A stretch of 63,729 nucleotides of DNA, the filler included, from Dugesia japonica (lineage: Eukaryota), in NCBI GenBank assembly GCA_001938525.1. It is 6 parts of 6 records of this genome, joined end to end, with 100 filler letters (N's around TTAATTAATTAA, not from the genome) between each part and the next. Parts side by side here need not be neighbours in the genome. Positions count along the whole stretch, not along the records: positions 17,837 to 30,767 come from MQRL01585236.1; 5 more parts are not named here. One strand, written 5' to 3'. The position numbers were made by a program, and so were the translations under genes. Under the pieces are notes generated by a model. It had not been told where the DNA came from and searched no databases. It saw only the letters and a program-made list of their open reading frames with translations. Below, in pieces: positions 20,503-21,933 of the stretch (position 1 is the stretch's first letter; each line of letters begins with the position of its first letter).

Positions 20503-21933
20503 ATGTTGCTCTTAAAAATGTCTAAAACCAACAACCACAAGGGCAACGAAACTAATAAGTTTATATGTGATTATTGTGGTAAAATATTATTAAAGAAAAA
20601 TAAATCTCGACATTTAGATTTGTGTGTCAACAAGACCCATAAAGGGGAGAAGAAAGGTGGAGATCTTAGCGTAGCACGAGCCGGAGGCGATCTACAAAAT
20701 TCAACACTAGTATCTAAATTATTAAAACCAATAACAACAGAAAAATATCCAGGTGAACGTCATCTTTTCAAACATAATTACACTGGACCCGGAACAAGAT
20801 TAGATATTCGACTAGATGAAAATAATATTCCAAAACCTGGTGAAGAACCAATTAATAGAGTTGATCAATCTGCATTAAAACATGACATTGCGTATCACTC
20901 TGAAGATATACGCGATCGTCATATCGCAGATGTTAACCTAATACATGATCTTAATAATATTGAAAATCCAACCCGGCAAGAAAAATTTCAAAGAGCTCTT
21001 GTAAAATTAGCAATGAAAGGTAAAATAATGATTGGTAAGAGCGCAGCGATCCATAAAGGACAAGGTGGAAAAAGAAAAGATCCATATAAAAAAACTACAA
21101 TAACAAAAGATGAATCTGAATCTGACATACAACCAGAGTGTAGCGAGCAAATTAGTAAAGAACTTCACCATGAATATAGAAAAACTAAACATTTTAGAAA
21201 AGTCATTGTTCATCACAAAGATGAAATTTGGTCGGCCGATCTCGTTTTCCAAGGTCCACAACATAAAGGTAAACATGTAATTTTAACAGTTATTGATCTC
21301 TATACAAGATTTGCATTTATTGAACTTATAACTGGAAAATCTGGCCCTAAAGTAACAGAAGCATTTAAAAATATATTAACTAAAAGTAATAGAACCCCAA
21401 AGAAACTATGGACAGATGATGGTAAAGAATTTTACAATCAACATTTTGAATCTTTCTGTAAAAAAAATAATATTGAAATGTATACCACACAAAATAAAGG
21501 TAAAGCAGTTGTAATTGAACGTTTTAACCGAACATTTAAAAATAAGCTTTTTCAACATTTTACTGCCGTTGGAAATCAAAATATCTCACTTAATCTCCTA
21601 GAACAAATTGTTGATACCTACAATAACACTATACATTCAACAATTAACATTTCACCTCAAGAAGCAAGTATTAATCCAGATAAAATAAAATTAAATCCTG
21701 GATCAACTTTCACTGAAAAACAAAAGTTTAAAATAGGAGATCGCGTAAGAATAACTAAAATTCGAAAAACATTTCCTAAAGGTTATACTTTTAAATGGTC
21801 AAAGAGAATTTATATCATAACAAAAATACATCAACAAGGTCAAGAACCATTTACATATGAAATCTCACATCTTAACGGCAACAAAATACTTGGAAGATTT
21901 TATACAAATGAACTTCAAAAAACATCATTTTAA
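20503..21933 (+). CDS. C2HC finger - parvovirus-like PLA2 - retroviral-type integrase fusion
   Basis: CDYC..H..C; HNYTGPGT and LKHDIAY; DDE triad WSADL, WTDDGKEF, VIERFNRT; one gap-free ORF. Confidence 0.95.
   Translation: MLLLKMSKTNNHKGNETNKFICDYCGKILLKKNKSRHLDLCVNKTHKGEKKGGDLSVARAGGDLQNSTLVSKLLKPITTEKYPGERHLFKHNYTGPGTRLDIRLDENNIPKPGEEPINRVDQSALKHDIAYHSEDIRDRHIADVNLIHDLNNIENPTRQEKFQRALVKLAMKGKIMIGKSAAIHKGQGGKRKDPYKKTTITKDESESDIQPECSEQISKELHHEYRKTKHFRKVIVHHKDEIWSADLVFQGPQHKGKHVILTVIDLYTRFAFIELITGKSGPKVTEAFKNILTKSNRTPKKLWTDDGKEFYNQHFESFCKKNNIEMYTTQNKGKAVVIERFNRTFKNKLFQHFTAVGNQNISLNLLEQIVDTYNNTIHSTINISPQEASINPDKIKLNPGSTFTEKQKFKIGDRVRITKIRKTFPKGYTFKWSKRIYIITKIHQQGQEPFTYEISHLNGNKILGRFYTNELQKTSF

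Follow-up and report, generated by a model that had tools for sequence, protein, structure and literature searches.

RESULTS

PLA2 and integrase in one reading frame of a Dugesia japonica Polinton

The 63,729-nt stretch of Dugesia japonica DNA analysed here (the window) contains a Polinton (adintovirus), referred to as element B, and a broken homologue of one of its genes in element A (Table 1). An rve integrase, a DJR capsid, an A32-like ATPase and a cysteine protease, by which Polintons are recognised, are all present in element B together with the C-terminal part of a probable pPolB. The protease matched nothing as a single sequence; its profile matched ASFV S273R (4e-9) and adenain (2e-8), with SENPs among the matches, and its His, Asp, Gln and Cys do not vary among 20 homologues, leaving the catalytic triad intact. 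Neither the probable penton nor the pX-like protein has a direct Pfam match, and homologues of the latter in two related loci (L001 and L020) match Adeno_PX weakly (E 0.046 and 9e-4). Related elements have long polB-like ORFs homologous to the pPolB part (E about 1e-30), which also lacks a Pfam match and whose N-terminal part is lost in the gap. No paired terminal repeats were found in the window, and the right end of element B is cut by a gap.

Several further ORFs were noted. A small acidic ORF with one GG motif lies upstream of the capsid gene (18802..19143, + strand) and is a possible further protease substrate. Coiled-coil-rich proteins of about 600 aa are common to B (24547..26340, -) and A (6391..8196, +); they have no significant Pfam match and are possibly fibre-like. 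Outside the elements we found a 292-aa ORF without family assignment (38023..38901, -) and decayed LTR-retrotransposon pieces with aspartyl protease, RT and integrase zinc domain (46900-49500 and 54800-56650, +).

Table 1. Features of elements A and B and of related fusion loci
Feature	Position	Strand	Basis or remark
Broken homologous fusion gene, element A	749..2551 (749..1498 + 1973..2551)	+	Homology to the element B fusion
Repeat-rich left end of element B	17865..18410	.	Probably a terminal inverted repeat; partner arm outside the window
DJR capsid	19140..20480	+	PF21738, E 3e-19
PLA2-integrase fusion ORF (element B)	20503..21933	+	476 codons, no N
C2HC finger, C-x2-C-x11-H-x3-C	20566..20625	+	Beta-hairpin plus helix in AF2 model
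Two candidate GG-D cleavage sites, KKGG/D and RAGG/D	20650..20691	+	Disordered linker; the second is family-conserved
Short helix, moderately amphipathic, would-be new N-terminus	20689..20736	+	Hydrophobic moment
Parvovirus VP1u-type PLA2 domain (Y93-x-G-P-G, D121, H127-D128, Y131, D143)	20746..21036	+	Pfam
Family-site position KxK[LF]GxG	21022..21042	+	First Gly kept, second lost in element B
GQGG/K, lineage-specific candidate replacement site	21058..21072	+	Disordered linker; without counterpart in element A
rve integrase (D246, D305, E339) and C-terminal beta domain, without chromodomain	21148..21930	+	Pfam, Foldseek
A32-like packaging ATPase	22154..23002	+	PF04665, E 6e-8; contains Ns
Adenain/Ulp1-like cysteine protease (H76, D87, Q110, C117)	26356..26838	-	Profile matches
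Probable penton (label inferred), two ORFs around an N-containing break	26853..27631	-	Homologous ORFs beside protease/ATPase genes in related elements
Stand-alone pX-like core protein, five GG/GxG motifs	28885..29439	-	Homology
pPolB C-terminal part, cut by assembly gap	29490..30815	-	Polymerase motifs in translation
In-frame adenain-integrase-chromodomain fusions	L013:2740-4248, L031:4458-5957, L073:274-1803, L090:535-1899; also P0248, P0288		

The fusion ORF carries the sole PLA2 of element B. Its first-pass annotation as a gap-free reading frame that joins a C2HC finger, a VP1u-type PLA2 with intact YxGPG and HDxxY, and a DDE integrase without chromodomain was borne out. The 476 aa are free of N, and the PLA2-integrase linker is crossed without gap by contigs of an independent run (2 records). 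Pfam recognises Phospholip_A2_4 at residues 87-157 (E 8e-9) and rve at 237-330 (E 8e-13). The motif residues are C22/C25/H37/C41, KKGG at 50, RAGG at 59, YxGPG at 93, HDxxY at 127, GQGG at 186 and D246/D305/E339. An AF2 model of the protein (mean pLDDT 83) has three ordered modules and low-confidence linkers at 45-64 and 182-204, which contain all three GG pairs of the ORF.

The finger of element B gave no significant match in a Pfam search, and that of one relative matched zf-U1 weakly (E 5e-4); the finger is present as annotated, but proved optional in the family (see below), where relatives show a C2H2 version. In the short helix that follows, the hydrophobic moment reaches 0.60 at residues 67-78, the 96th percentile within the ORF. 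As a family trait, a strongly amphipathic, pVI-like helix found little support, the family-wide moment lying only slightly above background.

The YxGxG loop, HDxxY and second Asp that mark parvovirus-type PLA2 are all present, and across 60 sequences the catalytic and motif residues are 95-100% conserved, the exception being the last Gly of the Ca loop (42/60). Foldseek matched the PLA2 model to viral PLA2/VP1 models, densovirus VP1 models included (best E 5e-4); against the PDB nothing was found at E<=0.001, rice PLA2 being a weak match (E 0.17). By its motifs the domain is therefore of the parvovirus type and predicted to have Ca-dependent phospholipase activity. For the integrase part the best Foldseek matches are foamy-virus and other retroviral integrases (E 7e-14). 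A chromodomain is absent, since the ORF stops at the integrase C-terminal domain and all three frames 3' of its stop are closed within a few codons.

Element B thus departs from two published definitions. In the accessible text of Buck et al. 2024 (10.1101/2024.03.25.586562), adintoviruses are defined by an integrase with a C-terminal chromodomain and a PolB that bears an OTU-like domain at its N-terminus; the integrase of element B lacks the former. PLA2X is defined as PLA2 plus pX by Starrett et al. 2021 (PMC8502044), whose main text contains neither 'fused' nor 'fusion'; in element B the PLA2 is followed by integrase, and the pX-like gene is separate.

This genome carries the element family in very many, diverse copies, as about 14,000 contig pieces per host DNA run match window positions 19100-22150 at >=88%. 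Two poly-A RNA runs of the same species, about one quarter of each read, yielded only 25 and 5 partial reads.

Both halves of the fusion are under purifying selection

The first-pass annotation also had the fusion shared by element A. This holds up to the first catalytic Asp of the integrase; beyond it element A is shifted in frame and runs into a stretch of low complexity and two gaps. The comparison of A with B gives a dN/dS of 0.24 for PLA2 and 0.23-0.24 for integrase, the linkers being saturated. The two domains are equally constrained, that is, under purifying selection inside the fusion.

The fusion is typical of one Polinton lineage

Both domains are present in 108 of the best 120 of 217 relatives. 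Among the best 150 50%-identity representatives, PLA2 is attached to 24 of 146 integrases and protease to 2, and none of the 146 is a triple protease-PLA2-integrase protein. Three automatically named clusters in the ESM Atlas (184, 111 and 72 members; scores 0.79-0.81) combine both domains, which we treat as a lead only, and in the sea spider Nymphon striatum one fused set bears the annotation of an uncharacterised transposon protein. In the integrase tree the fusion ORF falls within a clade of 63 (support 0.94), comprising 61 fused proteins, 2 of undetermined context and none with a chromodomain; fused proteins elsewhere have kept theirs (13 of 90 with a full C-terminus). The leader is still more variable: the 108 fused relatives carry a C2H2/C2HC finger (12), a C4 ribbon (8), a partial one (2) or none (86). 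PLA2X and integrase are separate in the classical alpha-adintoviruses among our loci. From this distribution, the fusion is typical of one lineage, being neither a feature of all Mavericks nor a one-off. As regards novelty, the architecture is thus common in one Polinton lineage and in databases, while a description in the literature is apparently lacking.

Integrase is also joined to the protease in some relatives. Among 98 loci from two integrase-based scans we found four in-frame adenain-integrase-chromodomain fusions (Table 1), which occupy separate places in the integrase tree and all have GxG or GGG in the linker. Neither direction of change between frameshifted and in-frame states is favoured by the tree, which is midpoint-rooted and has support under 0.3-0.55 at its deep nodes. 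In one locus (L071) the PLA2-integrase-protease block occurs twice in tandem within 6 kb. When viral contigs were scanned with a PLA2 profile, no PLA2-integrase junction came up besides L002 and L003. IMG/VR contigs of 2.3-3.5 kb (L112-L136), with a PLA2-like ORF and no Polinton genes, are probably small circular or ssDNA viruses.

Glycine sites bracket the PLA2 across the family

Three GG pairs in an ORF of this kind are unremarkable (p 0.25); that all three lie within 43 predicted-disordered linker residues is not (p 0.001, for a window chosen after the model was seen). When 13 ORFs of element B were scanned, GG/GxG clustered in the fusion ORF and the pX-like protein, and MCP, penton, protease and polB had none. 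Of 103 fused proteins whose N-terminal part is complete, 70 have a GG or GxG ahead of the PLA2; another 28 begin within 24 aa of the PLA2 module, a count of reduced weight because metagenomic protein starts are gene-caller choices, and 5 have neither. Behind the PLA2, GG/GxG with the pattern KxK[LF]GxG is found in 99 of 108 fused proteins and missing from 9. In equal-sized integrase windows taken as control the motifs occur in 3/865 and 4/1446.

The first-pass annotation, which placed GG sites on both sides of the PLA2, was thus right about KKGG, RAGG and GQGG being there and, family-wide, about Gly sites bracketing the domain. Its choice of GQGG as the downstream site fared less well: this motif sits 8 residues behind the aligned KxK[LF]GxG family site and has no counterpart in element A. 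Both upstream sites are kept in A, although that linker is only 29% identical to B, but no GG or GxG lies between the PLA2 and integrase of A.

In the loci that we compared, the same two Gly sites flank stand-alone PLA2X, which indicates that they were inherited with the PLA2 module. The closest stand-alone PLA2 relatives (P0121, P0122, P0123, P0141-P0144; <=72% identical) are short, their C-termini lying at the downstream Gly site or just past it. In the AF2 model the invariant Gly of this site lies at the end of the last predicted helix, and it may be structural. Adenain prefers a hydrophobic residue at P4, a position mostly occupied by Lys, Tyr or His at the Gly sites. Being GG-X or GX-G in an accessible linker, the sites are candidate substrates of the adenain/Ulp1-like protease.

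Cleavage might be confined to the upstream GG/D, with PLA2 and integrase staying joined, so that the integrase-DNA complex would enter with a membrane-breaching enzyme of its own. Upstream sites are indeed present in both A and B, the downstream one is decayed in B and absent in A, and the linker varies widely in length and sequence; we nevertheless regard this as unlikely, given that, of the downstream GxG, 91 of 108 fused proteins retain the second Gly, that B has a new GG in its disordered linker and other copies in the same host have a short linker containing GxG (read by hand), and that a Gly site is present in the linker of all four protease-integrase fusions.

In relatives the integrase often continues in the -1 frame behind an A-run

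Of the 98 loci, 49 have the end of a PLA2 immediately ahead of an integrase start; adding both copies in the window makes 51 junctions, of which 28 have both domains near-complete. Scored by frame offset, these 28 comprise 15 at -1, 11 in frame (10 loci and the fusion ORF), 1 at +1 and 1 interrupted by a stop. A run of at least six A lies just past the Gly site at 17/17 of the non-in-frame junctions and 0/11 of the in-frame ones. The true -1 count is 13, since two loci (L002 and L041) cross the junction in frame and are broken only further on, and the integrase thus continues at -1 in 13 of 17 near-complete A-run junctions. The coupling of A-run and frame state (Fisher p 2e-5) and the excess of 13 at -1 over 1 at +1 (p 0.002) are to be read with the caveat that the lineages are not independent: the loci are related to each other, though on several branches of the integrase tree.

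A canonical slippery heptamer, X XXY YYZ in the PLA2 frame, is found at 11 of the 13 -1 junctions and a non-canonical one at the other 2. Eleven of the 13 -1 integrases have no Met before the first catalytic Asp (three were judged by eye); the IMG/VR contig L003, whose capsid, ATPase, protease and PolB genes are long and open, combines a -1 junction with an integrase that has its own Met. A general stimulatory hairpin was rejected: among 15 loci, a strong one lies 3' of the slippery sequence at L040 and L066 only (median z +0.2, in a model without pseudoknots). Lys-Lys or Lys-Asn stands at the junction of 12 of the 108 in-frame proteins. The fusion ORF itself is in frame and has no slippery site near its junction.

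From this pattern, programmed -1 recoding in the relatives seems to us fairly probable, with homopolymer indels as a live rival. The latter form part of a broader account, in which the fusion simply reflects gene order: neighbouring genes would have been joined by loss of a stop or by indels in an A-run, the Gly sites would be PLA2X leftovers, the -1 offsets mutations or sequencing errors, and there would be no packaging role. A one-base loss from an A-run yields exactly -1, L002 and L041 are in frame through the junction and broken only later, one 13-member genome family shows all three junction frames (read by hand), mixed frames recur at the PLA2X-protease junction of alpha-adintoviruses, and the family has a very high copy number and is all but silent in the RNA runs. 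We hold this account to be decidedly unlikely all the same: it is at odds with the bias towards -1 and the tie between A-run and frame (non-independence of lineages notwithstanding), with 37 other runs >=6 in the 15 loci scored -1 that leave ORFs open (partly by selection), with the want of a usable Met in most -1 integrases, with purifying selection on the PLA2 within the fusion and with retention of the fusion in the supported clade of 63.

At the PLA2X-adenain junction of alpha-adintoviruses (L005:340-1371(-), L010:471-1535(-), L102, L103, L104, L111, L113, L117), a Lys-coding A-run is followed by the protease in frame, at -1 or at +1; the protease having a Met of its own, simple variation in run length may account for this.

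Very improbable, finally, is a different agent for either step, namely cutting of the Gly sites by the pPolB vOTU or host SUMO/ubiquitin proteases, or joining of the -1 type by splicing or polymerase slippage rather than by ribosomes: GG-X is a general target of this protease clan, SENPs are among the profile matches, an active vOTU is predicted on Polinton pPolB (accessible text of PMC11161782) and no general stimulatory structure was found, but in mavirus the GG-X and GX-G cuts are assigned to the maturation protease (accessible text of PMC6048507) and at 11 of 13 junctions the PLA2 frame holds a canonical heptamer.

DISCUSSION

The explanation towards which we lean is that the PLA2 module brings the integrase into the particle, where the maturation protease trims the leader and frees both enzymes. 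The PLA2 half of the adintovirus virion protein PLA2X would have left its pX partner and become joined to integrase. Acting as a packaging tag, the PLA2 module would take the precursor into the particle, and the adenain-like protease of the element would cut at GG/D, removing the basic/zinc-finger leader and exposing the short helix and the PLA2; a second cut, at the Gly site behind the PLA2, would probably set the integrase free. On entry the PLA2 would help to breach the endosome and the co-packaged integrase would insert the genome. Many relatives may make the same product in low amounts via a -1 slip at the A-rich site just behind the Gly site, and in the lineage of element B the PLA2-integrase product would be constitutive.

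A virion-packaged polyprotein that couples entry and integration and is processed by the element's own protease is also what the first-pass annotation had proposed. The intact and constrained catalytic sites, the Gly sites in disordered linkers, the protease triad and the mavirus precedent speak for it. It is weakened by the architecture being common, by the finger being optional, and by the named downstream site being neither the conserved one nor present in A. Stronger evidence for the interpretation comes from the -1 arrangement and the protease-integrase fusions of the relatives.

A close parallel in strategy is Gag-Pol. In retroviruses and LTR elements the integrase is the C-terminal part of a structural-protein precursor, made by -1 frameshift or in frame depending on lineage, and is released by the element protease. 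Likewise, the integrase of element B would reach the particle in a precursor with a virion protein and be released by a protease. Unlike these systems, element B is a dsDNA element with a double jelly-roll capsid, its carrier is a PLA2 and not Gag, its protease is of the cysteine and not the aspartic type, and there is no reverse transcriptase. With the PLA2 of parvovirus VP1u (PF08398) it shares the Ca-loop and His-Asp-Tyr motifs and the fold matches to densovirus VP1 models; it differs in that the enzyme is tethered to an integrase rather than a capsid protein and has Gly sites on either side.

Among DNA viruses mavirus provides the precedent for processing. According to the accessible text of Born et al. 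2018 (PMC6048507), its protease, Ulp1-like as in element B, cuts GG-X and GX-G, and native virions hold integrase together with a processed lipase-like protein. Integrase MV02 and alpha/beta-hydrolase MV13 of mavirus are, in the same text, separate genes with no fusion or frameshift. Element B resembles the alpha-adintoviruses (PMC8502044; 10.1101/2024.03.25.586562) in element type, parvovirus-type PLA2, integrase family and the adenain and pX-like genes. In those elements PLA2 is joined to pX and a separate integrase carries a chromodomain, whereas element B has PLA2 fused to integrase, a stand-alone pX-like gene and no chromodomain.

Our literature searches brought up neither a PLA2-integrase fusion nor a frameshift at its junction, although figures, bioRxiv supplements (including the Buck annotated genomes), Repbase and subscription papers may label such. 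The -1 slips proposed in the accessible text of Buck et al. 2024 (10.1101/2024.03.25.586562) concern penton and hexon-adenain, not PLA2-integrase, and the accessible text of PMC11296320, 10.64898/2026.06.19.733378, PMC3671162, PMC5803895, PMC11161782, 10.64898/2026.10.13.758929 and PMC4642659 contains no such fusion or frameshift. The PLA2-integrase fusion is common in databases, and the greater interest lies in the family-wide ways of tying integrase to a virion protein rather than in a single ORF. Tentatively, as a possibility that falls somewhat short of probable, we suggest that many Polintons have converged on a gag-pol strategy, in which the integrase is appended to an abundant membrane-lytic virion protein (by a programmed -1 frameshift or, in the lineage of element B, in frame) or to the protease, loaded into the capsid and released by the protease.

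A fusion under selection, the protease sites, and the -1 and protease-fused parallels together constitute sequence evidence for integrase as a virion component. According to the accessible text of a bioRxiv review no Polinton virions have been observed, and our findings touch on the question whether animal Polintons form infectious particles and how their integrase is delivered. If the interpretation is true, many Polinton integrases are mis-annotated as truncated or pseudogenised, an annotation trap that arises because -1 integrase ORFs begin at a Met behind the first catalytic Asp. A gag-pol-like strategy would, if true, account for the way in which the integrase of an integrating dsDNA virus gets into a new cell.
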